A stretch of 64,000 bases of DNA from Octopus vulgaris (Eukaryota): assembly GCA_951406725.2 (NCBI GenBank), contig OX597815.1:97650001-97714000 (forward strand), in the 5' to 3' direction. Each line of letters starts with the position of its first letter. Position 1 is the first letter of the stretch. Under the pieces are notes generated by a model. That model was not told the origin of the DNA, did no database searches, and saw only the letters and a program-made list of their open reading frames with translations. This document shows, in pieces, positions 6,103-34,742 of this stretch. A program made the position numbers and the translations under genes.

Positions 6103-6283
6103 GTTTGGGTATATGTGGTAGCAGCTTACTTATGCGTCAGTTTTATGCTGTTCGTACTAGCTCGCTTCAGTCCTTATGAATGGTATAACCCACATCCTTG
6201 CAACCCAGATTCTGATGTAGTGGAGAACCAATTTACAATTCTCAACAGCCTCTGGTTTACTGTCAGCTCGTTGATGCGGCAAG
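6103..6283 (+). CDS. Kainate-like ionotropic glutamate receptor, internal exon encoding M1, the M1-M2 loop and the M2 pore loop up to the Q/R site
   Basis: Acceptor tttctgttttacAG (AG 6101-6102) and donor G|gtgact (GT 6284-6285). Translation [61 protein letters not shown] is close to vertebrate GluK2 ([33 protein letters not shown]). 181 nt, ends in phase 1. Confidence 0.96.
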
Positions 6284-6566
6284 GTGACTGTACGTGTTCT
6301 AAGCTACTTTTGCATTTATATCCACAACGGCACATGTACACACTTACACAAAAAACACAAGTGCACGCACATAAGCAATTTCATACACAACAGCTCATAC
6401 ACAGTATATTGACACACTTGTCCATATACAGAATCGCATTCATATCTGTGTGTGTAAGTATACATCTATATACATATGTATATATGTATATATATATATA
6501 TAAGAACGCATATGTACGTGCATATGCATATAAATGAGTGCATATATATATATGTATATATTCATT

Positions 6567-6599
<33 letters not shown>

Positions 6600-6703
6600 A
6601 TTTATCTATATGTATATATATCTATTTATATGTGTGTGCGTATTTATCTATATGTATATATATGTTTGTCTATATATTTATGTGAGAGAGAGAGAGAAAG
6701 CGT

Positions 6704-6760
<57 letters not shown>

Positions 6761-7282
6761 TTTGTGTGTGTGTAAAAAGATTCAATTAGATTCGTCTTTT
6801 AATTTGGAGTTTTCCAAAAGAAGTTTTCTAATATAGATTCTTCATATTTTGCTGCTAGCTTACTGGCGTAAAATTGTGAATATGAAAATAATACTTGTAT
6901 ATAGTGTCTTGTGAATTTACGGAATGAGATCCCATAAAACTCAACACTTTTGATAAAAATAGAGAAGAGAAGGTGTTAAGATATATAAGAGAATTATAAT
7001 TCATGCAGACGATCGTTTTGAACAGCAATATAAAATTCATAGCAAATTCATGGTGTAATAGAATTAATTAGATTACGTTAAATAAATTATGTAACACTGC
7101 ACTCTTCCGTACAAGACGTATAAACTTTTTTTTACATATGACTTGATAAAACAAATACAGAATAGGAACTAGGAGATTCAAATTTATCCTTATGAGAAAG
7201 CAAGATATGTGCGAGTCCAGTTAGGTATTAACTAAAATTAAAGACCATAAGTGTTATTTGAAAATATAAGTGAGAGAGATTT

Positions 7283-8060
7283 TTAGAGACGTTCCTTCCA
7301 TAGATGAGTAAGGAGATTAGAAATTCTAACTCCTGAAGCGCGATGGCATTGTTGGCATCTTTGCGACTGTGCACTGTCGACTCGTTCTGGCACTGGTGTA
7401 GCTTTCAGTGCCAAAATTTGGCACAATTCCTTCCAGGATCTTCCAGTAGCTGAGCTGTTGCAACGAGACGATCTGTTTTTCTGAAACATCGCTGGATTAC
7501 TTCAAGGTCTGCTGTTAATTTTACTCTCTGTTGGGTGAAAATAGCTGGGAGCAGTAGTCTAGGTGGCTGAGGACGAACGTCCTTCAGAGGATCAATATGG
7601 TCTCCTTCTCTGTTTCTGAATGTTCTCAGGATCCATCCAGCAAGTTGTCTGCACTTAGTGGCCGTCTTGGTAATGTATCATCACTCATGTCGATAATCAG
7701 GTCCCTCAGTGATTTAGGCTGTGGCATTGTAATACCCTGTGGACCAGTGCTCACGTTAGTTTTATATCAGTTTTGGACGTTGGTACCGCAGAGCTTGGCA
7801 TTTTTCAGCATTAAACTGCATATTATTGTCCTCAGCCCGTCTGTAAATTGAATCCAATTTTTGCTGCAGGTATGCAACATTGCTGGGCTTCTGTATTTTC
7901 TGCAAGACTTCCGTATCGACTACGTAGCTAGCAAGAGTGGCTATTGAGGCAGCTAGAGGCATATCTCTGCGGCCCACCTCGGAAAGTAGTGGTCCTAAGA
8001 CAGTGCTCTGTGGAACACTGCTCACTATTTTTGTATTCTTTGAGGTGCCTCCGTTGGCTA
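7283..8060 (-). mobile_element. Decayed CR1/L2-type LINE reverse transcriptase fragment
   Basis: VPQSTVLGPLL (for GVPQGSVLGP), SYVVDT (decayed YADD) and LQQKLDSIY...NNMQFNAEKCQALRY thumb motif; contains stops and frameshifts. Confidence 0.85.
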
Positions 8061-8073
8061 CTACTGTCTCACT

Positions 8074-8126
<53 letters not shown>

Positions 8127-8261
8127 ATATATATATACATATATATATATAAATATATTTATATATATTTATATATATTTATATATATATTAATATACAA
8201 ATTTATGTAAATTGATATATATTTATATTTATATATATATATTTATAAATGTATATATATG

Positions 8262-8605
8262 TGAAGGCGCATGGCTCAGTGGTTAGAGCGTCGAGCTTAC
8301 GATCGTCAGGTTGTGAGCTCGAATCCCGGACCGGACTGCATGTTGTGTTCCTGAGCAAGGCACTTTATTTCACGTTGCTCCAGTTCACTCAGCTGTAGAA
8401 ATGAGTTGCAACGTCACTGGTACCAAGCTGTATCGACCTTTGTCTTTCCCTTGGATAACACTGGTGGCGTGGAGAGGGGAGGCTGGTATGCATGGGCGAC
8501 TGCTGGTCTTCCATAAAACAACCTTGCCCGGACTTGTGTCTAGGAGGGTAACTTTCTAGGTGCAATCCCATGGTCATTCATGACCGAAGGGGGTCTTTAC
8601 CCTTT
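8262..8605 (+). mobile_element. tRNA-derived SINE, family B, near full length
   Basis: A box TGGCTCAGTGG, B-box-like GCTCGAATCC, central ttcctgagcaaggcacttt...cactcagctgtagaaatgag core; flanked by TA repeats. Confidence 0.85.
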
Positions 8606-8729
8606 ATATATATATCCGATATTTTGTCGATCGGGTGATCTAGTAGCGCAAATCAGTCGATGTGTTGGTTGAATTGTATATAAAGTTATTAGCATTATCA
8701 TATTGTTCAGGGCTTCCCATCTCAGCTAC

Positions 8730-8776
8730 ATCTGATCGACAAGAGTCAGCAAACTCGAAACATCGATGTTTCAGAT
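8730..8776 (+). ncRNA. Minimal type I hammerhead-ribozyme-like motif with variant core (U3-A8 pair, C4)
   Basis: ATCTGA [stem I], TCGACAA [core], GAGT cagcaa ACTC [stem II], GAAA, CATCGATG [palindromic stem III], T T, predicted cut after 8770, TCAGAT [stem I]. All three stems pair perfectly. Confidence 0.65.
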
Positions 8777-8918
8777 TCCCGAGAGAGGGCGATACTGAAC
8801 GAACGGGGTATTTTCACACCTTTTCACCATAATAGAGAAGTTTTCTCCACGGTAATTGCTGTGTATTTGCCTTTAACAGTTGAAATATGTGACAAATATA
8901 GTTCAATTCACCTGGCTT

Positions 8919-8983
<65 letters not shown>

Positions 8984-9771
8984 AGAGAGTGAAAGATAGA
9001 TAGATAGATATAGTTCATATATATATATGTATGTATGTATATACGTCTACACATATATTTATATATACATGCTTATTTTGATCATTATAGGTGCGTGTAT
9101 GTGTGTATGCGCATGTATTACTTAACTAGTTGGTTTCTAATGCATTCTCACACTACAACGAAAGTTAACTGTTGCACAAAATTAAATTTTGTCATTATAT
9201 ACGATACATCTTCATTTTTTTTCCATATGTATTCCACTTTGCAGCTGTTTATCATAGAATTTAAATTATTATATATTCTAAATATATATCAACTTTAAAT
9301 GTGATAATGTATTTATAAGATATGTCCTTCACACTGTATATAAAAGTAATATTCTATATATGCACCTTATGCCTGAGTTTATCTTGTTCGAAACATAAGT
9401 GCTGAATCAGTTAAGTTACACGATCGAAATTCGTAAACAAAATGCATTTAAAAAATGTGCTTTCTTTCTTTACTCTGCTTTTCCAAATAAGGAATTCTTT
9501 AAATTTTAAAATGGTGTTAAACGTTTTTTTTGCCCCAACTAACGTTAAAACCTTACATGTATTCATGTTGCAAGTATTGAAGTTCCAACGTATTTTGAAA
9601 CAGTTAGATTTTTCTATATATCCTATTGGACCATTGATGACGCTAAGTGTATTTTGGGCAATCGGATACGTAAACTCCTCAAACTGGCTCCTTTAATTTA
9701 AATCAGATAGACTTTAATTAGAATTAGTTTTTGCGTCATATTCTGTTTCGAAACAAGAATATAATATATAA

Positions 9772-9845
<74 letters not shown>

Positions 9846-9850
9846 CATTG

Positions 9851-9904
<54 letters not shown>

Positions 9905-10012
9905 CATGCATAAATATATATGTATATGTATATATGTATGTATGCATATATATATATGTATATGTATATATGTATGTATGCATATATATATATATATACA
10001 TATATATATATG

Positions 10013-10043
<31 letters not shown>

Positions 10044-10178
10044 GTAAGTATGTATGCATATATATATATATATATATATGTGTGTATATATGTATGTATG
10101 CATATATATATATATGTATGTATGCATGTATGCATATATGTATATATATATATATATATATGTATGTATGCATATATG

Positions 10179-10224
<46 letters not shown>

Positions 10225-10400
10225 TATATCAATATAAATAGTGTTAGCGGTTATAGTAACCGATTAAGGGATCGAATATTCGTATAGAGACTCGGTATCT
10301 GTTAGATGTATTATCCCGGGGCAGTGGTGTGCAGGTACACCATAGACGTAGGGTGCAGATAACAACAGGATAAACAAAAGTTTATGAGGAACCAATGCAA

Positions 10401-10848
10401 ATAATTAGAAAATGGAGAAAACCACAGATTAACCAACACATCGATTGGACCACATTTATTACTTATTTTTTTAATACAAAGCATATCATAAAATTGGTGA
10501 CGTAACACATCTAACGGGTGGTACTGATCGGATTGTGAAAATGCTTTTACCTACTGACCCTGTAGCCCCTGATGGTAAATTATTTGCTCTTAAAATATTG
10601 GGCTTCTAGACTATTTGTCTAAGCCATATTTTCTTTCCTTTTCCTTCTTCCCTTTATTTATAATGTATGTTCTTGTTCTTCACTCTGTGGAAGATCCGTT
10701 GCCTTAATTCGAATGCCCTATAAAGATGAAGAACTTTATTCTAGCATTTACGTCACCTATTTTGTTATGCCATGCTTTGTATTAAAAAAATAAGCTATAA
10801 ATGTTGTCCAATCGACGTGTTGGTTAATCTGTGGTCGTCTCCATTTTC

Positions 10849-10855
<7 letters not shown>
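10401..10855. repeat. Imperfect inverted repeat (arms about 10401-10505 and 10748-10855)
   Basis: ataattagaaaatggagaaaaccacagattaaccaacac...ggtgacgtaa is the reverse complement of ttacgtcacc...gtgttggttaatctgtggtcgtctccattttctaattat with scattered mismatches. Confidence 0.9.
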
Positions 10856-10890
<35 letters not shown>

Positions 10891-10895
<5 letters not shown>

Positions 10896-11030
10896 TAAAT
10901 TAGAGATAAAGCCACTATTAGGCAACTAAAACAGTGATAGATATAAACCAAACATAAAGAAAAATAAATATAATCAATATAATATATAATATGAGTTACC
11001 TAATAGTGGTTTTATCTCTAATTTAATTTA
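10891..11030. repeat. 37-bp inverted repeat (10891-10927 / 10994-11030)
   Basis: taaattaaattagagataaagccactattaggcaact versus agttacctaatagtggttttatctctaatttaattta; 2 mismatches. Confidence 0.9.
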
Positions 11031-11096
11031 TATTTATACTGTGAAATTTGATTTAATCCTAAATCTAATTTTTCTTTGTAAGTTTGGATATACTCC

Positions 11097-11164
<68 letters not shown>

Positions 11165-11175
11165 AGGGAAGGAGG

Positions 11176-11239
<64 letters not shown>

Positions 11240-11663
11240 CATAGATAATGTTTCATATCCATCTGTGTAAATATGTATGTGTATGTGCAGGAGTGAATAT
11301 ATGTATATATTTATGGATGCGCATCAATATTCTTGAAAATATATGTATGTCTGTAAGCATTTATGTATTTATATATGTAAGCATACGTTGTTCAAAAAAA
11401 GTCTTTTAAGATCTACATCGGGCAGCTGTCAAATCATTCAAATATTTGTTTACTATACATTTTTATATCCCATTTACCTTACATTACACAAGGAAAAACA
11501 TATAAGTGCAACAGTATTAATCTTATTTAAGATAACGTTATTTACAAGATCTACATGACTGCCGCTTCAGTTAGTACTTTCAAAGAATCTGAATTCCAAA
11601 CGAACGTCTTCGCCATAAAAGTGGATTCAAGGTGTCTGGAGAAAACTTGCATATAATTTAATG

Positions 11664-11712
<49 letters not shown>

Positions 11713-12302
11713 CTCTGGACTTCTGGGGTAAAGAGGACCAGGTCCCTAAAAGCAATCGCAAAAGCAGCTGAAAAAGTTTCCAACAGGATTTAATTCACCA
11801 AGATTGAAAGGAAACATCATAGTGTCTCATCTTCAAGATGTTATAATATCCAAGTCAACCTCGTATTTATGGGGCCTAAAAAACCTGGAAGGTGCAAGGC
11901 ACAATATATATGGGTATCCTGGAGTCATGATCTGGATGCTGCTCAGCCCCATTTGATTGTATGGAGTTAAGGGTCGAAACACTTGCATAAGTGTGTTTTT
12001 CTTTTCTGTTAGAGTTCCTTATTGCATACTTACCTACCTACCTAGTAACATAGGCACACCTCTGCCTATCACTCTCACTCGCTTTCTCTCTTTCTCTCCC
12101 TCTCTCTTTCTCTCTCTCTCTCTCTCTTTCAATATGCATACACATAGATAGACAGACAGGTAGATACATAGATAGATAGATACACACACATACCTACACA
12201 CTTATATGTGTATATATATATATAAATATATATATATATACATATATATATGTATATATATATATATATAAATGTATGTATATTTATATGTATGTATATA
12301 TG

Positions 12303-12367
<65 letters not shown>

Positions 12368-13428
12368 GTGTGTGTGTGTATGTGTGTGTGTGTGTATCTG
12401 TACAAAAATATGTACATATATACATATGCATAAATATATATTTATATACATGTGTATGTGCGAGCGCACATGTCTGTGTGTATACTTACTTCGTTATATA
12501 GTTTGCGTAAATCACAGCTAGCGCAGGACATAACTGCATTTCATACATACTTACATACATGTGTCTGTGTGTGTGTATGTGTGTGTGTGTGTTTATGCGT
12601 GTGTGGGTGTGTGGGGGTGTGTGTATGCGAGTGTGTGTGTGTGAGTGTGTATTCGAGTGTGTGAGTGCGTGTATGTTTGAATGAGAGTATGTGAGACTTC
12701 ACTTCGCGAACGATGCACAGAAAAGAGGCTTTCGTCCTCTCCTAATACGCACACGTTAGTGGCTAGGAAAAGAGAACTCTGATGGATTCTCGGTCTAGGG
12801 AATGCATGCAAAATTCTACTCTCAGTCCGGTGCTGCTTTGTCACTGTTCATTACCATTGCCAACTATTTATTATTATATCAGTATATTCTTTAGTTCTTT
12901 CGTCTATTTTCTCATCTCATGTAAGATCATACTGGAGCAGACACGTCGTGATTATTTCACACACACACACACGCACACATATGTATATATACATAGATAT
13001 ATATATATATATACATATATACACATACTCATATTGGCACATATATGTGTACCCACTGTGAGAGAAAAAGAAAGGCAAAGACAGAGACAGTGAGACAGAG
13101 GAGAAAGTGTAAGGGCCACAGTTAAAGTTGTTTATTATAGATATCGTGTTTCTACACTTTAAATATATTTTGTTTTCTGGAGGTTTTAATTTCTTTCCAA
13201 GAATGCTGTTTATATAATATTTTTAGAAGCTATTCAATCTTCATTATGGCTATAAATGATTGTCATCACCTGAAAATGTCGTATAAATCAAATCTAGCTT
13301 TCACTTTTCTATTCATGTTGTTTCTTCCCAGTTAGCATTATAAATATTTACGAGCAGAAGCACGCATGGCCACATATATTGCTTTCAAACAGATATAGAA
13401 ACATAATCGCACACACATGTATATACAT

Positions 13429-13523
<95 letters not shown>

Positions 13524-13605
13524 GACATATATAGGCATAAATATACTTATAAAACACACATATACATATACATATTTATAAAGATATATACACGTATACA
13601 TAAAC

Positions 13606-13636
<31 letters not shown>

Positions 13637-14524
13637 GGCATATGTGTGTGTGTTTGTGTGTATGCGTGTGTACAAGATATATATATGCGTAAGTGTGTAT
13701 ATGTATGCATGCGTATATCCATACTTCTGACGATGCTTCTTTATGTGTATATTCATAAACTCAGTCACACCATTGTTGATTGTAGCTTGTTTCTAAGTAT
13801 ATATACTTTTTGTGTAAATATGTGTTCAGCTATATATTCCAGTGCGTGCCAGAGGGTGTAATTTCGTCTTTCATGTACACTTCATACTCATTTTCGTAAC
13901 TTGTGGTTTTTCTAGTTTGATAGTGATACATCACTCTCATTCGAAGCTATATTTTTAATATAACAGACTAAATCCAGATACTATACGTTTGTTTTTACTT
14001 TCGCAGCTTTTGACAAATGTATTCAGTGTTGAACAGTTAGCGTAGGACTTAATCCGCTGCACAAAGTGTATATAATTCTTTATGATGAGATAAATATGGA
14101 AATGTAATTGTATATGTGTGAATTGATATAATGTAGTCGTTCTCAGTAAACATGTACATAATGGAGATGCCAATCAATACGTGGAATTCCTAATTACAGA
14201 GAACATACATTAACCCAGCCAGTGTGTCTGCAAATAAATATGTATATGCTCATTTTTGAAATTTATTGATAAAATAAGAAAGAAACCAAGAAAATATTAT
14301 CACTAGAATCAAGCTGCAGGAATTATGGATTTCGAAAATCAAAATGCTGAATATTTTTGACTATGTATTAAGGCAATTTTTATAGGAAAATAACTTATTC
14401 CATTTTATCTGTTTGCATATAGTTGCTTGGTGTATGTATGTATGTAGGTAGGTAGGTATTTAGGTAGGTAGGTAGGTAGGTAGGTAGGTAGATAGGTAGG
14501 TATATGTATGTATATATATACATG

Positions 14525-14576
<52 letters not shown>

Positions 14577-14611
14577 GCATACATATATACATACATATAC
14601 ATATACCTATA

Positions 14612-14671
<60 letters not shown>

Positions 14672-15612
14672 CTTTGAAACATGGATGAACGACTGAACAA
14701 ATTATTCTAGATATGTTGCGGAATGCTGATAATAGGATGTCGACCTACATGCAGTTAAAATGTCTAGCGCATCATTGTATTTCCTCAACCATCACTTCTA
14801 TAATGATAATGTTCTGCTGCATTTAATTATTCTTCAGACACCATCAGTGATTTCGTCTTCGTGAAGCATGTTGGGAGCAAGTGTGTCTGATAGCACCTAC
14901 CACTTTCCGGGTTATTGAGTAAAATCGATGTTTCAGAAATTAATGAAATAATCGGCTCAACTGGAAAATTAATCTCGGTCAAAGGCTTAACTTTGTGGAA
15001 TTTATTAAAAATCAATGGCGCTTTCTACCATCTCCATACCCAGCTGCATATGAATATGCTATATTTAAACAGAATTATTTGTCTCAGTCTTCACATGTGT
15101 AGAATTCATTAACTTTTGCAGAAATTGATTTGCATTGATCAGAACTCAATAAGCATTGGTTCTTGCAGTCAATAATTAATCTTCTGTTTTTTAATGGGTC
15201 AGTAGAACGCACAGTTATTTGTCTTTACAAGATCCAGAGAAACCGCCACCCTGTGCTATTCATTTGCACTTCTGAGTAACCAGAATTCCTACACCAGTTG
15301 TCTTGGCAACCACTAGCATTTAGTAGCTGACAATTGGCGTACACCTATGCCATCAAGTTTTTGGATATTTAATTTCTTGCTTTAGCATTTGTAACTTTGA
15401 CGTGGCCGAAATGTAAATTGCTAGCATAAATTAAATGTTTTCCCCACTACAGACCCAGTTCTCTCAACACCAACATTTCAAAATCTATAGAGAAGATAAG
15501 CATCTCTTTTCACTAAATAAATGTTACCCAAGCTTGTGTCAGAATTTCAAGATATCTTTTTCCTGAAAGTTCATGTACTAATATTTCTTTGCCTTAAAAG
15601 ACAGGAGCTTTC

Positions 15613-15835
<223 letters not shown>

Positions 15836-17681
15836 CTTTCACTGGCCTATATCTGTTGTTTATCTGTTGCGCCAGAAAAGTTTAAATGCAACGCTTCATT
15901 CGTCTGCTGTCAATGCTATTGTTCCCCAAGCCTCTCCACAGTTCATTTCCTGTGTAAAAGGCTAACGTTCATACATATTCTTCTAACAACATATTACATT
16001 TATAAATTTAACACTTCATTACAGCAACTTTAGAAACTCTATACATCCGTTCGGTCAACTAGAAGTTGACAGAACGCAACAGCTAGAGCCTTTTGTAAGT
16101 AGATATCTTCAAAAAACATAGGGCTAAATAATAATAACAACAACAACAATAATTCTAGACTTCCATTGCTTTTACGATCAGATTCGTTGACAAGATCTTT
16201 CTATAGGCTCATGGCCACTAAGTGTTTTAAATAGATTCGGCTACCGTTGCTATACTTCATATTACTTAATGTTGTTGCGCACTAGGTTATCCTTATTTAG
16301 TGGACCTATGATCAGCTGCGTTCCAGATTTGCTCTTTCTGTCTTGTTTTGTTTCAGATAGAGTTTAACCAAGTTCGTATCTTCTAACGTTTATATATTTT
16401 TTAAGTCACTACGTTGCTGTGTGAATGAACTTGTCTGCTATTTCTAAAAGGCATGAACGAACACATAGAACCTTAATCATTGATTGCTTAAGTGTGATTA
16501 ACCATTGATATTCTTTATGTTAGATTTTACCACTGAACTTTGTTGTTGGTCATATCGATGCAAAGTTGTTTGAAACATTTCATGCAACCATTTAAAAAGG
16601 TATATTCAAATATTCTGACAATCAGCCTTTGTATCTATTGAATGAACCAATATTTTCCATAAAATGTAATTCATTGGTTTAATAAATAGACTATTTTTCT
16701 ATTCGTTTTGCTTCTGTTGTTCATAAAACTACTTCAGCTTTTTCATTTTGAAAAGTTGTTGGAAACTACAACACATCTATTGAAAATATCTTTAGGGTTG
16801 AATTAGTTGCCTTTGACCAAATCCAGTGATGTTAATGTATATTTATTGTACAGCTTGGGTACAGGTTTGACTGTGTGGTTAGGAAGTTTAGTTTACTGGC
16901 AAATACCTCCACTTCGATAGCATTGACCACATTGTGTAGCATTTTGGTTAAATATCGTCTTTTACCACAACAGAAATTTCGGCAGAAATTTCTGTGAGTA
17001 GTTTGTTCGATAGAAACTGTATGTACCCTTTGAGATGTCTACTATGTTGAAAACATTCGAGCCGTCTTTCTTTGTTGGGCAGCTGCATTTTTCCTTCTCT
17101 TCTTCCAATCTCAGAGGCATAAAAACAGGCATAGACGCTGTCGTTCCTTCTCTAACAAAAACTTATCTTTCAAGAGCTCTAAAAGTAGTAAAATATCATT
17201 GATACTGCTATTCTCGTGTTTGGCTTTGTGGTAAAAAAAAACAGCCAGTAGTTCAAGAAAAATCCAGAACATAATATATTATTTTCTACTATAATGTAAC
17301 AATTTAGTATAGAAATACTACCATGTATTGAAATCCTTGTAATTTTTAAATGCCTCAATGAATATTTTTGTTTTGGCATTTATCGAACTGCAAATGAGAT
17401 TCTTTCAATACGACTACTTGTTTTTCTTAGTTTAGAGGACAACTACAATTAACTTATTTACTTTTCATCACAAGATCAATATGTTTTTCTAATAATTGAT
17501 TGGTAAAAACATTTTCTACGCTGCTAAGTATCAGGGGATTTCACATTGTCTTTCTATTCAGTTAGTTAACATATGCATATACACACCAAACCAGACTCTC
17601 TCTCCCTCTCTATATATATATGTGTCTGTGTGTGTGTACGTGTGTATAAGCATAGCCATTCAAATATACACATATGCATAA

Positions 17682-17725
<44 letters not shown>

Positions 17726-17792
17726 CACTCACACACACATATATATATAGATAGATATATCAATACATATAGTCTTATGTTTTGTATACTTG

Positions 17793-17831
<39 letters not shown>

Positions 17832-19284
17832 TTGTGTATGTGTGTGTGTAACTCTATACTTTTATGCGAACACACTTTCTCTCTCTATATATATATATAC
17901 ATATATATGTATGTAGGTATGTATGTATTATGTATGTGTGTATGTATGTATGTATGGCAATTTGTGTTGTAAATCTTCATAATTTTCTCTTTCTCTCTCC
18001 CCCCTCTCTCTCTCTCTCTCACTTTCTCAGTATCGATAACAGTGCTTTTGTGCTTTGTTACAGCAAGAAATCTTTCTTACTCTGTATTTGTGGTCTTAGT
18101 TTGTATTCCCCCAGTAAAAAAAAAACTATATTCTCGGTTTAAGAAAATAAAATCGTGCCTAGCTGAATGAAATACTACTGGAAAATATGGTATTTCACTC
18201 AAAATAGCATAACAGAATCCCTCAGAGTATGCTTTTTATTAATTTGTACCTTGGCACACAGATTCCGACATTTCAGAAGAGTAGAGATTAACTAATTTAT
18301 GACCCTGCAAACGATTATCTACTACTATTATGTATTAAAATCGCTGGAGGAAGAACAAAAATCGAACCCTGTATGATTTTTATTGTTTTGATTATATTAT
18401 GAGTATTATTTGAGTAAAAAAATATATAAAACCATCAAAGAAAGAAATTGTATGCAGACGCTCGACCTGCTGGATTTAGCGGCTACATCCCTATCAACCG
18501 TTACTCTAGTTCTACATATTTAAATATGAAGTCCTTGAAAGAAGTCAAAAACAATAGGATGAAATGACAGGAGCACAATTGATGAAATATCAGATCGATC
18601 AAGTATGACCTTGTGGTAAACAATAAAAGCGTTCCAAATCTATTCCAAACTTAGAAATAGAAAATAACGGAACTAATAAACAAGCCACAATTCGTATGAA
18701 AAAATAATAAAACGTAAAAGGTAAAATATCCTTGTGGACAAAAGTGTTGGTACAATCTCCCAAAGGATTTGACTTCTAGGAATGAAAATTGCAATTAATC
18801 CCAACAAGAATAGGAATAAAAACCTAATAAAACGCAATAATGTAATGCACGCAGTCAGAAGCTCAGAACATTTTGTTATATGTCCATGATGTTTTCATAC
18901 ATTGTAATACATTCTACAATTTTATAATGGTACATACATGACGCATTAGGAGCTGTATAAAACATGGATGATTTTCCTCTCTGTTTTCTCCATGAAGACA
19001 TTGCTATTTGTAATCCTTGATTTGCGTATATGTCAAACAAAACAAAGTATTATTAATCTGACGTTGGGAGCAGGTCAGAAGATTGTAAGCTAGTAATTTG
19101 ACGTTATTTTAGATATATTTCGGTTGTTGTTGTTTAACATTTAGCTGATTTAGGGCTAAGCTATAACTACACAGCAACATGTACGAAATACATTGAAAGA
19201 CTACACTATCCAGTTTGTTCTTTCTTTCTTAAGAGAATAACTCATGATTTTTTGAAGATTTGGTCATTACTTCTTGCAGGAATA

Positions 19285-19495
19285 AAGTGGTGAGCTGACA
19301 GAATTGGTAGCACGAGGACAAAATTGTTAGCGGCATCATTTCTAGTTTTACGTTCTAAGTTCAAAGTCACCGAGGTCAACCTTGCCTTTTATCTTTTCGG
19401 GGTCAATAAAATAAAGTACCACTCAAGAATTAGGGTCCACGTATTCGACTAACACCCATCCCTAAAATTACCGGTCTTGTGCCAAAATTTGAAAG
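19285..19495 (+). mobile_element. CORE-type SINE, family C, degenerate
   Basis: gtggtgagctgacagaat head and gaggtcaaccttgccttttatcttttcggggtcaataaaataaagtacca CORE-like domain. Confidence 0.7.
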
Positions 19496-19659
19496 AACTG
19501 CTTCTAGCAAGAGTACTAATACGATATTGCTTGTCATCCTTATTTCACTTACTTTCTCGTGTGAGAAATGATACAAAGGTCGATATAAGCTAATTGTAGA
19601 TTGAGATCGTAGAGAAACGTACTTAACTGCTACAAGCCATCCAGTACAGCTCTTTACCC

Positions 19660-19895
19660 TTTCTTATTGCTTTACTGCCCACAAGGGGCTGCACACAGAG
19701 GGGAAAAACAAGGACAGATAAACGTATTAAGTCGATTATATCGATCCCAGTGCGTACCTGGTAATTATTTAATCGACCCCAAAAGGATGAAAGAAAAATC
19801 GACCTCGGCAGAATTTGAACTCAGAACGTAGCGGCAGATGAAATACCGCTAAGCATTTCGCCTGGCGTGCTAACGTTTCTGCTAGCTCGCCGCCT
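19660..19895 (-). mobile_element. CORE-type SINE, family C
   Basis: Reverse strand ggcggcgagctagcagaaacgttagcacgcc...gagttcaaattctgccgaggtcga...tttcatccttttggggtcgattaaataattaccag. Confidence 0.8.
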
Positions 19896-22493
19896 TAACG
19901 TTTCTGCCACCTCTTTACCGTTTCTGCCAATCTAAGTTCACTAGTAATTACGCTAATTACTAATTAATCAGACGTTCTATTCTACGCGTAAACATTTCAA
20001 AACTACAATATTCTTCACAGCATAATTGGTTTTGAAAATATACATTATGTGACAATAATTTTAAGTTCAGAACCAGAAATATCCGTCCCATTTGCTTAAC
20101 ACTCGTTCTTAGTCTGAAATTATAGACTTCAGTTTATTCAGAGAAATCTGATATTTTCAGAGAGAATCAGTTACAAAGGAATCCTTACAAAATATTTTGT
20201 TCCGTGTTTTAAGATTTCCACGTAACGCAATATTGTTAGCCAGTATAATTTTTTGTTTTTATTTTCATTTTCGTAGTTGTTGTTGTTGTGTTGGTGGTTG
20301 TATATTGAAATAATTTCTTCTCGATGCAGTATTGTAAAAAGAACTTGTCTTCATCTGACCTACTTCCGCTTCCCTTTTTCTATTTCTCCTAATTCTTTCC
20401 TTATTTTTTCTTCTACGTTATTTCATAGTATTTTTTATATTTTCAATGTATTTTTTCTCCTTTTCGAGAACATCAGTAAAGAAATCATGTCAAGATTTGA
20501 AGAATTTCAATAAAACTTTATGGTTTCAGATGCTTACATATCGCTAATGAAAAACACACCAGTACACACACACTGAAAAGATAGACTTTCAAACAATATT
20601 GTATAGATAAAACCGTATCATAAAATTTTTCACACTTAATTATATTTACGCAAATACGCACACATACATACATACATATGTATATATACACACGTGCATC
20701 CATGCACACATACATACATGTACGCACACACATACACACACACACACGAGTATATATGTATATGTATGTGTGTGTATTTGTGTGTATATGTATGTATGTA
20801 TGTATGTATCTATGTATACGTGTATACAGCGTACTTTTTTAGTATGCCAATGCATATGTGTATACGCTTCTATATATTTGTGATTTTGTTTAGGTTTCAT
20901 TATATTTCGTTAAGATAGAAACTATTTTGATGTGTAATTAGAAAATGTGATTAAACTAAGATTCATAAGCTTTTATGTGTGGTCTTTTCACATTTTAAGC
21001 ATATTTGAAAATTACTGTTATTCAATACTATCTATTGGTCTAATCTTTATATTCCCAACACGCTGTTCCCTATGGAATTTATCTATATTATATTTTTTCA
21101 ATGGAATTTTATTTACAATCTAAAACTTTTTATATACTTTAACTACTTTCTCCTATCATTTCCTGATTTTAACATTAAAAACGGTCAATTTCTTGAACTT
21201 AGATCCAATACTTTAAATGATATAAAACAAAATATATTTATTTTTAATTATCATAGTGAGCTAATTTAATCTAGTCTGCCATAAAATATACTTAACAGTA
21301 TAGCTTATTTGTACAGTGATATGTAGTATATTTATATAAGAATATTGATATCTTTATTTAACTTATATTTGCTTTCTATTTAATTTAGTATTCACTTTTA
21401 ATTAACTTACAGTTTAAATGTGTTAATTAATTTTACCATCACAGCGGTCAACGGCAAAATTATTACTACGCCGGGCAAAGTGGTTAGCGACAAGTACCCG
21501 TGGAGCAGTGGAGTCGGTGTAATCGACTAACCCCTGCCCAAAATTTCAGGTCTTGTGCCTATTGTAGAAAAGAATTAATACAACCATTTCGTTGTAACTT
21601 TTGGTGAATTTCCGTTTGTGACCAATATTCGTGCTTCCCTTCCATCGAATAGTCTCGTTGTCTGACTAAATCATTTACAAGAAAATAAATTTACCTCTTA
21701 ATCACGAGCTAAAAACGGAGCTCATTTGCTAGCGTTCCCGTTATCTAGCGGTCCAGCAAAAGGGACGGACGAATATGTGCCAGAATAGTATGAAATAGCA
21801 TAAGTACTGGAGTTCTGTTGTTCGTTTAAAGCCTTGGAAAGCGGTGTCCTAGTCTGGCCGTAGTCCAACTACTGAAGCTAGTAAATGATAAAAGATATAA
21901 AACAGTAAATAATTAACTGCAAACACCGTTTGACAGAACCAATGGAAGTACCACACATTCTTTTGTTCAAATTCAAAATAATCGAAAAATATATATATAT
22001 TTTGGTATATGCGGTTGATGTTCAAATATTTGAAATGGTTAATGATAATATATATGATAACTAGTTCATGAAAGTTATTTTGATATAAGTATATTATATA
22101 GTATTATTTATATATTTATTTTGATACAAGCATGGCATTATATTATAGCAGTGTTTTTAACATCTGCTGTAACTCTTATAATTAGGATCGCAGAAACAAA
22201 TATGTTATATTGATAAGAAAGTAAACAATGAATAAGAAAAAATCTGTGAATATTTAAGATACAAAGCTGATGGGTTATCGAGATATTGTGCAAATGTGTG
22301 TCAGTGTGTGTGTGCGTGTGTATGTGTGTGCTGTTAGGTACGTGTATGTCAATGAATGAATATATGCGTGGGTGTCTATGTTTGGACGTATTTTACATGT
22401 GTATTTTTATGTTGGTGTGTGAGAGAGATTATATATGTACGTATGTATGCTTGTATTTATGTACGTATATATTTGTACACACACACACTCACT

Positions 22494-22568
<75 letters not shown>

Positions 22569-22987
22569 TTACATATATGTGTGTGTGTGTACGTATATAT
22601 ATGTTTGATATTATGTGTCTGTGCATATTGCTATCCGCCTTTATGTGTAGATATTAATTTGTAGTTTTGTGCAGCCTTCTCTGTATATCTATATTAGTCT
22701 GTCCGCACAGGTTTATTTGGGCGGGTGAGGACAGAATATGTTTTACTCCATTATTTATATTTTAATCATTTTATTTCTATTTTGTATATTTTTTCTCCAA
22801 CTGAGAAGATCATTTCAATTCATGGAAAAAATATTTTGCGTACATTCAGTTTTCAAATACTTATTATATTCAGCTACTTCATCTGATTCCATGACCATCA
22901 CTCATTGTATGCTCGTTACCACTACACACACACACATACACATGCATACACGCATCATTACCACTACACACACACATACGTATATAT

Positions 22988-23884
22988 AGTGAGAATTTAC
23001 AAAAAGAACACGAAGACAGGTGTGTAAACAACAAACATATATATTAGTTTAACGTTCGGGAAGTGAGAAAGTCTTTTACGTTTCGAGCCTATGCTCTTCG
23101 ACAGAAAGGAACACAGAAATTAAAAAAAATTAGAGAAAATTGAAAAGGTTTGGTGGCTAGCGATCTATCATGGCGAATGCCGGTCAGAGGGGTCACACAG
23201 GACAGCGAGGCAGGGGATATAATAAAGTAGTGGTGATCCCAAAACGAAGATGCGGTTGTATGTGAGAGCGTGTATGTCCGTATGGAAGAGGGCTGGTGAC
23301 ATTGACGTGTGCGTGTGTGCATGTGTAGGTGTGTGGATGATGGTGTAGGTGCTGGGAAGTGGTCAGTGCTAGTGTTGCAGAATGGTGTGATGTGGTGTGA
23401 TGTATGGTGGTGTGTGGTCTGGTGTTGTGTTGTGTGGTGGTGTGTGTTGTGGTGGTGTGTGGTGTGAGGTGTGTGGTGCGGTGTTGTTGGGTGTGGGAGG
23501 CGAGAGTGGGGAAAGCAAGGATGAAGTCTAAGGGATAGGGTGGGGATGGGATGGGTTGTATAAGGATAGTGGGGTTGGAATGTGTTTGGGTGGGGTAACG
23601 AGGGAGAGGTGCCGATGAAGGGAGAGGGTGGAAGGGAGAACGTGGGTAGGAGTGAAGAGAGAAATAGGTACCAGAGCAAGAACGGGAGGTGGGTGGGAGG
23701 AAGTAGGTTTGAGAGGAAGGGAGGAGAGAGGAGGAAGGTTAGATGAAGAGGGGACGAGAGTTGAGCCCATATGGTGCAAAGCAGCGAATAGAGAAGATTA
23801 ATCCCTGCTCACGACGAAGCCGGGAGTCTGGATGGCCCTGTGCAAGGATAATCCGAACACAGACAGGTGTTGTAAAGGGCGGCC

Positions 23885-23885
<1 letters not shown>
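22988..23885 (-). mobile_element. 5'-truncated Penelope-like element: GIY-YIG endonuclease C-terminus plus terminal repeat with a hammerhead motif
   Basis: Minus strand about 23880-23739 reads HLSVFGLSLH/(frameshift)QGHPDSRLRREQGLIFSIRCFAPYGLNSRPLFI*, matching the PLE pattern R..RE...I..L....P.GLN. A low-complexity tract and a hammerhead-like motif at 23108-23073 follow; both ends abut (TA)n. Confidence 0.8.
23073..23108 (-). ncRNA. Minimal hammerhead-like motif in the PLE terminal repeat (A6 replaced by U)
   Basis: Minus strand CTTT-CTGTCGA-A-GAGC atag GCTC-GAAA-CG-TA-AAAG, with a palindromic ACGT stem III. Confidence 0.55.
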
Positions 23886-23932
<47 letters not shown>

Positions 23933-24115
23933 AAAATGAGATAGGGGGGAGGGTTATGAGTGTAACCTACTATGGGATATCAGTTATCCAATATACTGCC
24001 AGTGAAGTACCCAAAAGGCTAATGCATAAATGCTTACAATTGCAATGCAATTAGTTCATTTATTGTATTAGATGGGCGAAGGTAAAATGTTTTACCTCAA
24101 AATCATAATACAAGT

Positions 24116-24212
24116 TAGAAAATGGAGGAACAGATTCCTTTCAATCATCACCTTACAGATAATACCAATCTGTAAGTTGATGATTGAAAGGAATCTGTTC
24201 CTCCATTTTCTA
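24116..24212. repeat. Near-perfect hairpin with 45-bp arms and a 7-nt loop
   Basis: tagaaaatggaggaacagattcctttcaatcatcaccttacagat - aatacca - atctgtaagttgatgattgaaaggaatctgttcctccattttcta; 44 of 45 positions pair. Confidence 0.95.
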
Positions 24213-24225
24213 TTTGTACATTTAT

Positions 24226-24274
<49 letters not shown>

Positions 24275-24296
24275 GCATATATGTTATGTTTGATTA

Positions 24297-25100
24297 AACG
24301 AGGCTAAAGCACGTAGAGTGAAGCCGCTTGGAAAACTTGACCTTGAACGCATGTGCACTTAGAGTTAATGTTCTGGCTCACTTCCGCAGTTTACAACAGT
24401 GCTTGGAACGAAGGTGTGTAGTGTGTCATCGTCGCTTTCACCATGAGAGATAAAGTTGTCATGGCGATACCTGCTCAGAGACCTACGCAGTGTTGTTGAA
24501 CGTATGTGGAGAGGATTGCATGATCCGCACACAAGCGTACGAGCGTTTCAGACATTTCCAAGATGGCCGAAGAAATGTTGATATTGAAGAATGTTCTAGG
24601 AGACCCGCAACAAGCTGAACTGAGAAAAACATCGCAGATGTATGTGCAGCTGTGTGAGGAAATAGTCGAACCATTATCCGTGTGATATTAAAGGCTGTAC
24701 AGACAAGTTACGTTTCAGTTCACACCATTTTCACTGAAGATTTGGGTATGAGACGTGTGTTTGCCAAGTTTGTACCAAAACTGCTTTTAGCTGACCAAAA
24801 ATACTCTCGGGTTTCAGTTGCACAAGTTCTCCTTGATTTTGTCGAGAACGAAGAAGACTTTCTGAAAACTTTGTGTAGGCCTCTGAGCAGATGTCACCAA
24901 GCTTTTGGCAAAATTTGGGGATTCTCTGCTCAGCTTACTCTGTCATGGTCAATGCGACGATTACACGCGACACACCTTCCTTCCAAGCACTGCTGGAAAC
25001 AGCGGAAGTCAGCCAGAACGTTAAAAATTAGTGTGTATGCACATCAGCGTTCAAGATCAATTTGTGCAAAACGCTTTACTCTTCGTGCTTTAGCTTCGTT
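24297..25100 (+). mobile_element. Internally deleted mariner-type DNA transposon with long imperfect TIRs (about 165 bp)
   Basis: Transposase N-terminal remnant VHTIFTEDLGMRRVFAKFVPKLLLADQKYSRV (WVPHEL-equivalent linker). Ends aacgaggctaaagcacgtagagt... and ...actcttcgtgctttagcttcgtt are inverted copies. Confidence 0.85.
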
Positions 25101-25249
25101 ACTCTGACATATATATATATATATATATATATCGTATCAAGCTAAGAAGTACTCCATAGTTCCAGAATGTTCGACTCGAATCAAATATAGAAAACACTTT
25201 AAATCGTTGTTACCCCGACTACTCCAGCCAAAATCAGTAACAGTCTCAT

Positions 25250-25700
25250 TTTTTCTTTTACAAACAACGAGCGTATACTTTGTCTCCTATTTCGCATAAT
25301 GAATGCCACAAATACCTGGGTATTAATTAAAAAAATATGTATCCTATGAAGGTACTATGAACAAAGTGACCAAGAACATTACACTACTAGACTTAGGAAA
25401 ATATGATATGCATTCATTCATGCAACATTATCTCACAATGCATTTTCAGTACCAGTACTGATATCAACATTTGAGATACTTGAATGGTCTGAAAGAAAAC
25501 CTACTCCATAAACATTAAAACCCGCCAGAAATTGGCGTCAAATGGAAATATCCATAGAAACTGGGAAATCGACAGGCTCTGTCTAAGGTAGAGGCTCAAG
25601 ATTAGTGCAGATAGCCTCCGAGTGTCGTATAATATATCTCAGACTACATTTACTAAACAACAGCAGTGCTAAAAAGCGAAGAAAGCAACGTGTTGCGTGT
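25250..25700 (+). mobile_element. Decayed R4/Dong-like LINE RT thumb fragment
   Basis: Broken translation gives KYLGIN, SHNAFSVPVLISTFEILEWS, NIKTRQKLASNGNIHRNWEIDRL and GRG...ECRII, typical of RLE-clade RT thumb regions. Confidence 0.65.
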
Positions 25701-27806
25701 CAACTGTGACCTCAGGAATTACCTTCTTCCTAACAACATTCCATTTTTCAATACAACCCCAAAATAGCTGGCTGACATACCTTAAAGATAACGTGTATTT
25801 GTAGGTACTTATACATAACATATGAGAGAAAGAGACAATAGACACGGAGGAATTCAGTAACTGTTACAACTATACTGCCGATGACACCAGGTAAACGCAA
25901 AAAGTGAACGTGCTTCAATCGGCATACTAGCCGGTGTACACCAAGTCTAAAATAATTAGGTACTTATATATGTACGTACTGCGTGCATGCATCTCATTTG
26001 CAAGGTACTATTCAAACCAAGAATATGGTGGAAAACACTTTCCCAAAGCGTCATGCAGTGGAACTGATGACGAAGATAAACAGTTATTTATTGTTTTATA
26101 TCTTCAAGTATACTTCTCCTATTGGCTCAGTTCTGAATTCAAATCTTACATTCGGAATTCAAATATACATGCAATTTACTTTAGACCTAATCTGAGACAA
26201 ATAAGCATAATATACTAAAGAGGAATCTATCCAATCGTCTGTGCATCACATTTAATTATTTCATGTTGTACCTATGTTTGGCTTCCATATTTCATAATCG
26301 TGTGATTAAAGAATATAATAAATTGTGTGATTAAAGAATATGATAATTACAAGATGTAGTATATACCATTTGTTCCATACGCGTGTTTGGACATTGTAGC
26401 TGTTTACTTCCCCTTCAGTGGATTTACATATTGCATTTGGATTCAGATCCACAATGGTTTTTCATGATAACATTTTATTACATAATGTTGTTTACCATAT
26501 TCCTTTTGTCTATCATAACCATCAATACTACTAAATACAATATCATCCATACCACTTTGCATGAAGTGGAGTGGAAAATGATGTTCAATATGGAACATTT
26601 AAATTCACCAATAGCAGTAATACATCTAACTGTACACATAGGAAATACTGTATATATGCGTGCATGTGTGTATGCGTATGTGTGTGTATGTGTATGTGTA
26701 TGTGTAAGTGTGTGTGTCTATGTGTATGTATATGCATATGTGTAATGTGCGTTAATTTATATACAAAAACTCGTGAATTTTGCATTGTAATGTGGATTCT
26801 TCAGTCATTTAACTGACGTACCCCTCCAGAGAGAGTGGGAGTACATACTCGTCTATATGAGGATATCATTCGCTTTTCCCTCTAGCTTGCTTTTGATGTT
26901 GCAAAATAATTCTATAAAATATTTCCCATTGTTTCCAGTGATTTTCTGTCTCTCAAATGTTAGCTTCCATTTAAAAATTCTGCATTTTACTATGCAAATA
27001 AAATGCTTTCCATTTCACGTATAGAATATAAATTACAATTGAAATGCCAGTAGGTAAATCTATGTCGGAAAATGTTCTACTATTCCTTGAGGATTGGGGC
27101 GTATTTTTTTTCTTCTTGAAATCCATTGTTCTAAATTTGTCGTAATTGACATTTTCTATTCACTTCTATATTATTTCATATATTTTGCTGTGTAGCGTTT
27201 GGCATCAATCGTTTCTTTTTACTTATAGCCGTCGGTTGGACTCTGCATGTACAATGTTTCTTCTTTCAAAATGTTATAGATATAAAACTGTAATGGCTAC
27301 GTTATCAGTATGCTTGGATCGCAATAGCAGAATGATAGGCTTGCTCCTACGAGGCGCACATCTATCCAATGTTTTCTGCTATGATTTCAACTCGAATTCG
27401 AGAGTAACCTCTGTGGTACTTCACAGGCAATGTATGTAACTGCCTATCCGTCTGTCTATCTGTCTGTCTGCCTGCCAGCCTGCCTGTCTGTCTGTCTGCT
27501 TGTCTGTCTGTCCGTCTATCTATCTATCTATCTATCTATCTATATATATATATATATATATCCATCTATATGCTGCATGTGTGACAAAGGTATATCACCA
27601 ACTACATTTCCTTCATTACAACTCACACCTTGGTATCCTTTCCTTTCTTCGGTCATTTTAGCACACGGTGATCGTTTGAGACACATTTGTTCTTTTCTCT
27701 CGCCATGCTTTATATTCTCGTCGAGTCTTTCTGTAAAAGATCGTATGCTCGAAATGGAAAAGACTTTCCCTTTGATTTTTCCTGAGCGTAAAACTATAAT
27801 ACACTG

Positions 27807-27857
27807 TGTCTTTTTAGCTCGTCTGCGTATTATTTATAACTTTTGCACCATACGTAT

Positions 27858-27928
<71 letters not shown>

Positions 27929-28250
27929 CAGAATGGAGTAGGTAAGATCCGGGCTGCATAAGGTTCGCAGCGAGTGGACCTCAAAAGTGATAAAAATCCA
28001 AGGGAGGTGTATACCACCGGCTACTTTTCAGGGCAAGGATATCTTGATAAAATTAAAGGTTACATTGTTGCAAGGGGGTATATGTTGATGCACATATAGT
28101 ACAAAAGCTATAAACAATACGCAGACGAGCTATAAAGACATGCATGAAGAGTAGCCGATAGTATACACCTCGCTTGGATTTTTGCCACTTCTGAGGTTCC
28201 GCTCTCAATGAAAAACATGTAGCCCGGATCTTACCTACACCATTCCGTAA
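27807..28250. repeat. Interleaved double inverted repeat A-B-A'-B'
   Basis: A (27807-27861) is complementary to A' (28089-28140); B (27926-28030) is complementary to B' (28145-28250). Confidence 0.85.
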
Positions 28251-29253
28251 TTCTTGTATTTGTATTCGCACACCCAGTAACCCCATTCACCTACCGTGGA
28301 ATATGAAAGTAACTTATCCACAACCTTCCGCCTCAATAAACTACTATTGTCCCTGAAAGTTGTTTTTCTATATTTATTATGGATTGCTTGAAGTTAACTT
28401 TCTTTTACTTCCTACACCTCGATCCCTGGATCTTACATTTATACATAAAGATATTTTTAAATATATATATGTGTGTGTGTGTGTTTGTGTGTATTGAATA
28501 GTCAGGATCGTTAGATTGTTGGATACAAGGTTTCATGGTAATTATTCCAAATTTCCCTGTGCACACTTCTACTTCCGTGGCGTCACCATTGTTTGTCATA
28601 ATTTCTGGGTCGATAAACAGCGAACTCGCCAAGGACAGTGTTTTGGCAGAATTGTCAGAGTGTCTAACGTGAAGCTTTCATTTCTATACATTGTAGGTGC
28701 CAAACCTCTGCCAGCACTTTGAAATACCGGTCAAAACGTACTTTTTTTCCTCTTTGAGCTACAGAACAAACACGCACACACACATACAAGCACACACACA
28801 TATGTATATTGTGAAGATGCATTTACGATCGCCAGATCGTGATTTCGATTCCCTGACTGGGTGTAGCGTTGTTTTCTTGATCCAAACGTTTCATTTCATG
28901 TTGCTCTGCTAGCATTTCGTTTCTGACACGTGACATGTGCAGAACCATTACGCGTCGTCTAACGACTGGAATGTTCATTATGTATATATTGTGTAGGTAC
29001 TTAGGGTATTTCCCTTCTGTTTCTAAAAGGGAATTCCTTACATGTTTATTTAACATGTAAAACGTTGTAATTCCTATTAGCAAATGAAACTCCTGTAATG
29101 TTGAATAAATAGCACCAAAATTTTACAATTTCCATACGTGAATGTGTGTATGTGTGTGTGTGTTCGTGTGTGTGTGGTGTGTCTGTGTGTGTGTATGAGT
29201 TTGTGTGTGTGTATGCATGTAATAATTATTTTATATTATACATATTATATACA

Positions 29254-29431
29254 GGCGCAGGAGTGACTGTGTGGTAAGTAGCTTGCTTACCAACCACATG
29301 GTTCCAGATTCAGTTCCACTGCGTGACATCTTGGGCACGTGTCTTCTACTATTGCCTCGAGCCGACCAAAGCCTTGTGAGTGGATTTGGTAGACGGAAAC
29401 TGAAAGAAGCCTGTCGCATATATGTATATAA

Positions 29432-29506
<75 letters not shown>

Positions 29507-29706
29507 GTGTATCTGTGTTTGTTCCCCGAACATCGCTTGACAACCGATGCTGGTGTGTTTAGGCTCCCGTAACTTAGCGGTTCGGTAAAAGATACCGATA
29601 GAATAAGTATTAGGCTTACAAACAGTAAGTCGTGGGGTCGATTTGATTCGACTAAATGCGGTGCTCCAGCATGGCCGCAGTCAAATGACTGTAACAGTAA
29701 AAGAAT
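29254..29706 (+). mobile_element. tRNA-derived SINE, family A, full length
   Basis: ggcgcaggagtgactgtgtggtaagtagcttgcttaccaaccacatggttccagattcagttcc head, internal (TA)(TG) tract, tail ...gcatggccgcagtcaaatgactg...aaaagaata. Confidence 0.92.
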
Positions 29707-32700: not shown

Positions 32701-34269
32701 AGCGCTTGTAAATGCCTTACGGTATTTAGTTACATTTCTGTACATTCAGAATGCAGGTTCCACCAAATTTGACTTTGTTTTTCGTTATTCAGGTTTCGAT
32801 CGAATATACCTTTTTACTGGAATCGATAAAATCGATTATATTACTCCACACAACTGTGTAGAATTGAGTCAATGTTAGAAATAAATGTCTTTTTTACAAG
32901 GGTGGTAAGGCAGCCAAATTGGATTTAATTATTTCGGGGTCGATAAAAATGTACCAGTCGAGTATTTGGTGCATTTCTGACTTACAGTATGCACCGGTCG
33001 CATCCTGGATCTTTACCTGATTCAAAAGTGGGATGGGCTGCGTTTGTGTCAATTCTATGTGTATCTACATGCTATAATGCAATCCACGATTCTGAAGGAT
33101 TTATTAATACTGTGTAATTCAGAGAAATATTTCATTTATTTCTTTTTTATATATAATTTAACATCTTTAGAACCGAAGTGATTTTCTTACTTTCATAAGA
33201 TATGCTAGTGTTTTACGTTCTCAGGAGTTTCTTCATTCGAAAGGTGATAGAAATTCAGAGAGTGGAATGTTTGCTAATTTCATTGACATTGGTAATAACG
33301 TCTTGCTTTACGTTTAAGCTTAACGATTTTTGTAAATTGGATGTTAGTAATACCTGATTGCTTAAAAGCAGAAATGCATGCAAAAATATGACGTTTGAAG
33401 TGGGCCTAGTTTACTTTCGCTGACAACATGGAATTAATGAAAGTTCCTAATAATTGCTAAGTTGTTCCATATTGCACTACATAAAAGAAATTCAAGGAAT
33501 TTGAAGAAATAATTCTTAGCTGATAAATGATATGACAAAATATTGCTGCATGTAAGTATGACTTTGAAGTAACTTTATAGTTTATTATTTATCAATCTTA
33601 GACATAATTAGCTGCATTGGTTAAATTGCAACCAAAATAATAATAAAGAAAGAAGCCATGTCATACAAAATGTCACCTGCGACAGAAATATGAATTTTGT
33701 CAAAGAATTAATGTGACGCCGGGCGGAATGCTTTTCTACATTTTACGCGTCTTTGCCGCCTGAGTTCGACTTTCCCTTTCATTCTTTCTGAGTAGATAAA
33801 AAAAAGCTGTAGTTGAACTTTGGAGCCGATATAATCGACTTACGCCCTCCTCCTAAATTGCTGGCCTTGTGTCAAATTCATAACCTCAATTGATCTATAT
33901 GTCACGCTATAATATGTTAAACCCCAACATTTCCCATTAATTTAAAACAATGTAGCTTACTGGAGAAGAAATCACTTTGCCTTCTCACTCACAGTTTCTA
34001 ACGCAATGCAAAAACAAGCAATATCTTGAATGATATCTTTCAAAATTATTGAGATGTGTATGTACCCGATGACTTTATAATGATATTGAAATTGGGTATT
34101 TGTTGACGGAAAATATGAAAAACATGTGTTTAAAATTTTTTAATGCATACATCTATGTATATTTACATATAAAGTCAGTAAGTAAAAGCTAGATAAGCTC
34201 AATTGAGAGAACACGTAGTAGCGCTCGAGACTTTTTCGGGAGAGGCGTTTATTAATCGCAAAACAATAC

Positions 34270-34500: not shown

Positions 34501-34742
34501 ACTGTTTTGCTATATTTGTGTATCTACTACATCAGTACTTGACTGTGTTTGTATGTGTGTATATTGGTGTATATATGTATGTGTGTGCGCGCGCGTGTTT
34601 GTGTGTTCTTATTGTATGTAAATACGAAAGAAAGATATAGACTGAACATCGGAATGAAAGGAAGTGATAGATACCGTTTTTTGCATCTCGAACTCCTTGG
34701 AGGCTTCCCTTTATACTTTAACTTACCTTATATTTTTATTAT

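Follow-up and report, generated by a model that had tools for sequence, protein, structure and literature searches.

The Q/R site of the ionotropic glutamate receptors is the textbook case of recoding by RNA editing. In cephalopods, the animals best known for recoding, one might look for editing at this site, but an octopus gene of this family does not leave its arginine to editing. How a kainate-type receptor came to carry that residue in its DNA, and with what effect on the channel, is the question raised by a window of 64,000 nucleotides of Octopus vulgaris DNA; the codon also bears on whether edits become fixed in the genome, a matter debated for coleoids. An earlier note, made from the letters alone, had reported LMRQG pore codons with a G at position 6278. 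The same letters are read here: 6271-6285 is TTG ATG CGG CAA GGT, with the Q/R-site codon CGG at 6277..6279 of the forward strand (Arg625 in the numbering of the octopus protein P0002, equivalent to Q621 of GluK2).

Three exons of the gene lie in the window, and these, like the features below unless stated otherwise, are on the forward strand. The first (6103..6289), which follows the acceptor tttacag and lies within the 6101-6290 covered by RNA contigs, encodes M1, the M1-M2 loop, the pore helix M2 and the filter (VWVY to LMRQGD, plus the first base of a Cys codon). An intron of 39 kb (6290..45312, from the genome search) separates it from a second exon (45313..45530; RNA contig junction and protein match), whose product comprises CEFSPR, M3 including SYTANLAAF and the beginning of S2, and a third exon contributes part of the S2 ligand-binding lobe (53590..53815; protein match). 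Together they encode 210 residues, identical to octopod 'kainate 2-like' proteins of Octopus sinensis, O. bimaculoides, O. vulgaris and Argonauta hians; the gene as a whole extends over about 0.8 Mb of contig C2. Its introns also hold open reading frame fragments, on the reverse strand at 38113-38873, 54988-55260 and 7408-8124, which we take to be remnants resembling Tc1/mariner transposase and LINE reverse transcriptase.

The earlier assignment to a cephalopod kainate-like receptor is borne out both by this identity and by the structural comparisons. In P0002, Pfam domains and alignment give an ATD, a ligand-binding domain, M1-M2-M3-M4 and SYTANLAAF, which is the kainate-type architecture. 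The pore exon by itself matches Pfam Lig_chan, and its gap-free alignment to GluK2 563-623 puts the arginine on the Q/R glutamine Q621 (E 5e-29, against 2e-13 for the best AMPA-type chain), and for the whole protein GluK2 is the closest among solved structures (E 3e-266), with a two-residue gap at an insertion described below. By these alignments the product is nearer to GluK than to GluA sequences; the kainate/AMPA boundary rests on them, the 48-row tree having included a single, long-branched AMPA-like row. The Arg and the Glu that contact the ligand in receptors of this type align with those of GluK2; gating by glutamate or kainate is a putative property of the octopus protein.

Four sequencing runs of 24 were compared, two of DNA (X9 and X11) and two probably of RNA, and their contigs, in which rare variants would be invisible, had no letter other than CGG at 6277-6279. 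One of the DNA runs, X11, comes from another organism, with 16 listed base differences elsewhere in 501 nt. RQG is also present in the genome-derived protein models of all four named octopods, in accord with the two additional DNA runs, and an assembly artefact is excluded for the octopod CGG. A related concern is that CGG might belong to one of two mutually exclusive Q/R exons. Tandem R and Q copies of the pore do exist in arthropod homologues: among 97 kainate-type models (P0152-P0248), most of them from insects and crustaceans and one from a spider, 71 contain the pore stretch twice, with Arg in the first copy and Gln in the next, in a search that favours duplicated stretches. These twin stretches, which are of two sequence types (FLRQG/LLRQG, and LMRQG in bees and wasps), are probably alternative exons. 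In the octopus there is a single pore-exon match on the window's contig, and no second, Gln-coding pore exon was detected in the Arg gene, the 39-kb intron included, by searches whose counts are floors. Arthropods and octopus thus share a genomic kainate-type Arg, but the arthropod genes hold both states in one gene whereas the octopus has separate paralogues, each state on its own, with one pore exon in the Arg gene. That CGG reflects either an error of assembly or polishing or one half of an exon pair is hardly credible. The arthropod sequences also qualify the earlier statement that invertebrate subunits mostly carry Gln, which stands for the sampled molluscs but understates how common genomic Arg is, as far as a biased, mostly arthropod sample can tell.

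The splice junction downstream of the codon differs from the one first proposed. The earlier note had placed the intron directly after the first base of the glycine codon (6283|6284), and this did not survive comparison with RNA: contigs X15 and X17 both match through 6290, then continue into the exon at 45313, and their loose ends define a donor six nucleotides further on, GTACGT at 6290..6295 (junction 6289|GTACGT). The hexamer GTGACT at 6284..6289 is the ancestral donor, now exonic; according to the RNA contigs and the protein match it codes for Asp-Cys after the glycine at Q/R+2. This 6-nt, 3' shift yields RQG-DC-CEFSPR, with two added residues at the end of the selectivity filter, where gastropods and bivalves have QQG-CEIAPR and GluK2 has QQG-SELMPK. 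The G|GT position is ancestral, being kept in a Gln paralogue of the same genome (L003) and in many Gln homologues, and the intron after QQG in vertebrate GluK2, GluK1 and GluA2 occupies it too; the octopus differs from these by the shifted donor and the Asp-Cys. A crude comparison with the donor consensus does not explain the choice of site (6/9 positions for the unused site, 5/9 for the used one), but a G at +5 is found only in the used donor. The shift could have been caused by a G-to-C change at +5 of a donor reading GTGAGT, the form present in the Gln locus L009.

Arginine and insertion travel together. The insertion is present in 8/8 named octopod models that include the pore and in all 12 transcripts of a bobtail-squid-like cluster, and it is accompanied by Arg in three Octopus species, in Argonauta and in each of the 12 transcripts. 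Among parsed motifs, a G-to-P spacer of six residues goes with Arg in 21/21 proteins, and the four-residue spacer is found in 191 Gln proteins; the exceptions are three Gln proteins with other lengths and one Arg protein with the standard length. The insertion is a natural experiment on a filter loop that has a near-invariant length in the kainate proteins examined.

Outside this group the site is overwhelmingly glutamine. Among the best 120 of 944 homologue matches, 117 have Gln and three have Arg, namely the octopus protein, the squid-like P0003 and a marmoset GRIK2 entry (P0089) that probably derives from edited mRNA; within the same 120, the named non-cephalopod mollusc proteins, including those of a chiton and of Solemya, are Gln in 40 of 40. 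Of 80 metagenome loci, 68 yielded a total of 69 motifs, none of them with Arg; their Gln codons are CAG in 59/69 and CAA in 10/69. In the trees (a quick one of 48 rows and a careful one of 16), the Arg rows form one clade (support 100/100) inside an otherwise Gln mollusc clade (99/98), which excludes the chiton and includes Aplysia GluR7; the non-cephalopod members of this molluscan kainate clade read QQG-CEIAP or QQG-SDIAP. Since the Arg clade is nested among Gln molluscs and every other sampled mollusc has Gln, Arg is derived in molluscs, which answers the earlier question of whether it might be ancestral there. The polarity at the codon is likewise from A to G, with Gln in all outgroups. 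The Arg clade has a long stem (0.30) and short tips (0.037 and 0.014), a shape consistent with rapid early change and later constraint.

The squid-like cluster, about 93% identical to Octopus over its full length, consists of transcripts, so that the Arg codon is observed in DNA for octopods and in RNA for squids. A short-protein search (59 matches, best 85% identity) and the metagenome scan (80 loci) yielded no non-octopod cephalopod DNA for the pore exon, and the searches identified no Nautilus sequence. By eye, P0003 matches the first 400 nt of the probe RNA for Grik2-4 of Euprymna berryi (PMC12240821, supplement 4), which is why the cluster is called squid-like.

Arg is one of several states in the octopus genome, where at least eight pore-exon matches comprise one Arg, four Gln and three Trp. 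The Trp codons (TGG) lie in three iGluR-like genes (L006, L007 and L008), two of them near-identical neighbours on contig C6. One of the Gln genes, L003 on contig C21, has CAG, belongs to the same mollusc clade as the Arg gene and keeps the ancestral donor. A sister relationship between this paralogue and the Arg clade was not recovered in the tree, and an AU test fails to reject it (p=0.116). One of the N-terminal exons of the C21 gene agrees with Euprymna Grik2-2, as judged by eye, along a stretch of about 16 residues. According to the available text of PMC12240821 (section 11), Grik2-2 and Grik2-4 are paralogues specific to cephalopods whose expression patterns in the optic lobe complement each other, and Grik2-4 is a marker of dopaminergic cells in the outer granule layer. 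On these by-eye peptide matches the octopus Arg gene is likely orthologous to Grik2-4, known in Euprymna from its expression, and the C21 gene to Grik2-2. Should expression indeed be complementary, the partner of the Arg subunit must be another subunit or itself. One structural difference was also noted: at window 6103 the coding sequence of the Arg gene is interrupted by an intron, with PLSIE before it and VWVY after it, that is absent from the C21 paralogue and from P0004, a possible intron gain (L095 versus L089).

The explanation that we favour, and consider probable, is that the genomic Q/R arginine and the 6-nt donor shift were fixed together in one of two sister genes, and that the result is a subunit with predicted low Ca2+ permeability and freedom from polyamine block. 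Both changes would likely have been fixed in a common ancestor of octopods and squids, the Arg of squids being then presumably genomic as well. The choice of paralogue, as for teleost gria2, might determine the Q/R state of a neuron, and ADAR would tune pore positions adjoining the Q/R site. CGG could have arisen by direct mutation or via an edited stage; the data cannot tell these routes apart, and direct mutation needs no extra step.

The edited route, in which an early coleoid edited CAG to CIG and the genome subsequently acquired the G, leads to the same end state as our preferred explanation and differs from it in history alone. CGG is indeed the codon of the edited form, and it has the same position and resulting codon as in vertebrate GluK2, GluK1 and GluA2, where ADAR2 edits the site; on the other hand, CAG to CGG is an ordinary one-step transition, and Gln can become Arg by a single base change in just two ways, of which this is one. 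An ADAR-edited Q/R site pairs a genomic CAG with an exon-intron duplex. Here the DNA has CGG, which makes the Arg unregulated, unlike in vertebrates, and window 1-16300 contained no intronic pairing partner above shuffles (best -32.3 kcal/mol, with 37 of 40 shuffles as good or better); such a duplex need not survive after assimilation. Fold scans around the codon likewise gave nothing above shuffles, inverted repeats being swamped by AT microsatellites. In the predicted fold of the exon, a long hairpin at 6142-6188 takes in the codons for FSPYEWY and for the last part of M1; the exon as a whole is no stabler than its shuffles (z 0.83).

The squid-like transcripts speak in favour of the edited route. 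Across the 12, 11 of 13 variable columns are of A-to-G type, against 16 among the 54 differences that are fixed between octopod and squid (p=4e-4), allelic or species differences being a possible source of the variation. Four such columns fall in or near the pore (P0003, P0131-P0141): I/V at Q/R-5, E/G at Q/R+6, I/M just before SYTANLAAF (edited state in 8/12) and E/G in the M3-S2 linker (10/12). The squid-like transcript is thus probably edited near the Q/R site, and for that reason assimilation keeps a modest probability. A squid ORF annotated as GRIK2, which may be this or another paralogue, has 63 recoding sites (PMC4384741, in the available text). Within the same exon, the codon five upstream of the Arg offers a candidate assimilated edit: Val620 (GTC, 6262..6264) is Ile in 15 of 16 outgroup proteins, Ile or Val in a 6:6 ratio in the squid-like transcripts and Val in 4/4 octopod proteins. 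Val at 620 is also found in Nucella, however, so the swap is not diagnostic. The adjacent Ser621 (AGC, 6265..6267), at a conserved pore-helix position, is octopod-specific, with Gly in the other aligned proteins; A-to-I editing could turn it back to Gly, and two RNA contigs show the genomic base.

Several results weigh against an edited past. Neither CAG nor a partly edited state was found in any sampled orthologue of the Arg clade (octopod models and squid-like transcripts). On the stem of the Arg lineage, changes of A-to-G type are not in significant excess (8/50, against 60/556 in other lineages, p=0.25), nor are they in the membrane region (2/5 against 5/60, p=0.09). In addition, A-to-G fixation at strongly edited coleoid sites has been reported as suppressed, according to the available part of PMC8382921. 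Overall, the proposal of the earlier note that this is a former editing site, assimilated into the genome, is unsupported by these comparisons without being refuted, and we regard it as possible but unlikely.

A variant of this idea would confine genomic Arg to octopods, with decapodiforms keeping a CAG that is edited to nearly 100%, like mammalian GluA2. All of the squid-like evidence comes from transcripts, 12/12 of them Arg, of which 8-10 carry the edited form at other sites; but not one of the 12 contigs has Gln. This variant is very improbable; if true, it would be direct proof of assimilation. For squid GRIKs, PMC9068888 as available gives only a Tyr/Cys site as conserved and edited, and neither the supplements of PMC8382921 nor one supplement file of PMC9068888 contained GRIK matches. 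We found no description of a cephalopod Q/R arginine or of the insertion in the literature, in which 'Q/R' is unsearchable as a term and Supplementary Fig. 11 of Albertin 2022 (GRIK editing) may show it.

What would such a subunit do? Arginine at the Q/R site dominates permeation whatever the charge at +4. Edited GluK2 homomers conduct very little; therefore the octopus Arg subunit should work in heteromers, or else the added Asp should matter. Residues Q621 to E625 line the filter of GluK2 (PMC11599716, in the part available), and blockers are described as acting on receptors with Gln rather than Arg at the site that sets Ca2+ permeability. On the strength of these vertebrate data, the octopus subunit is predicted to have low Ca2+ permeability and to escape polyamine block. 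The insertion complicates the analogy, in that it places Asp at +3 and moves the Glu from +4 to +6. In GluR6, an acidic residue at either +3 or +6 restores polyamine block to an E594Q mutant, and the loop is solvent-exposed and tolerant (PMC2217257, as available). By analogy the insertion is probably tolerated, and it may make the cytoplasmic mouth more negative.

It is conceivable that the Asp-Cys does more, offsetting or redirecting the effect of Arg so that the channel is unlike edited GluK2, for example with a larger cation conductance as a homomer. That Arg and insertion always occur together in octopods and squid-like transcripts would fit, as would a mouth that, from the GluR6 results, may carry two effective negative charges with acids at +3 and +6; the +6 Glu is moreover Gly in 2/12 squid-like transcripts. 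Set against this are the dominance of the Q/R arginine and the tolerance of the exposed GluR6 loop, in which the insertion may be neutral, and we consider such an offset rather unlikely. In the AlphaFold model most of the pore loop scores below 50 in pLDDT, so that the model says nothing on the geometry of this loop. A low-Ca2+, unblocked subunit, as in our preferred explanation, predicts that in cephalopod visual circuits cells using the Arg paralogue have linear, Ca2+-poor kainate currents, and those using the Gln paralogue rectifying, Ca2+-permeable ones.

Genomic Arg at the Q/R site is already known in fish and arthropods, so the surprise of the octopus gene is limited. Teleost gria2-beta and hagfish GluA2 encode it in DNA (PMC3553965, PMC8659423), and gria2-beta resembles the octopus gene in that the fixed Arg is in one of two duplicates. 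These receptors differ in being of the AMPA class, and the available text of the two reports mentions no insertion. In teleosts the sister copy is still edited, which makes an edited ancestor plausible there; none has been shown for octopus. A fuller scenario joins the strands above: coleoids would have built a switch between Ca2+-permeable and -impermeable kainate receptors by duplication, fixing a once-edited Arg in one copy together with the acidic residue from the donor shift, this copy marking distinct optic-lobe neurons (Grik2-4, outer granule layer), with ADAR still tuning nearby positions and octopods fixing Ile620Val as well. Taken whole, this chain is speculative and we think it doubtful.

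Finally, we noted vertebrate-like GRIK pore exons that read on into the intron: P0273 and P0287, two NCBI records from long contigs, have Arg at the site, and the near-identical P0296 has Gln. These may represent genomic Arg in a vertebrate kainate gene.
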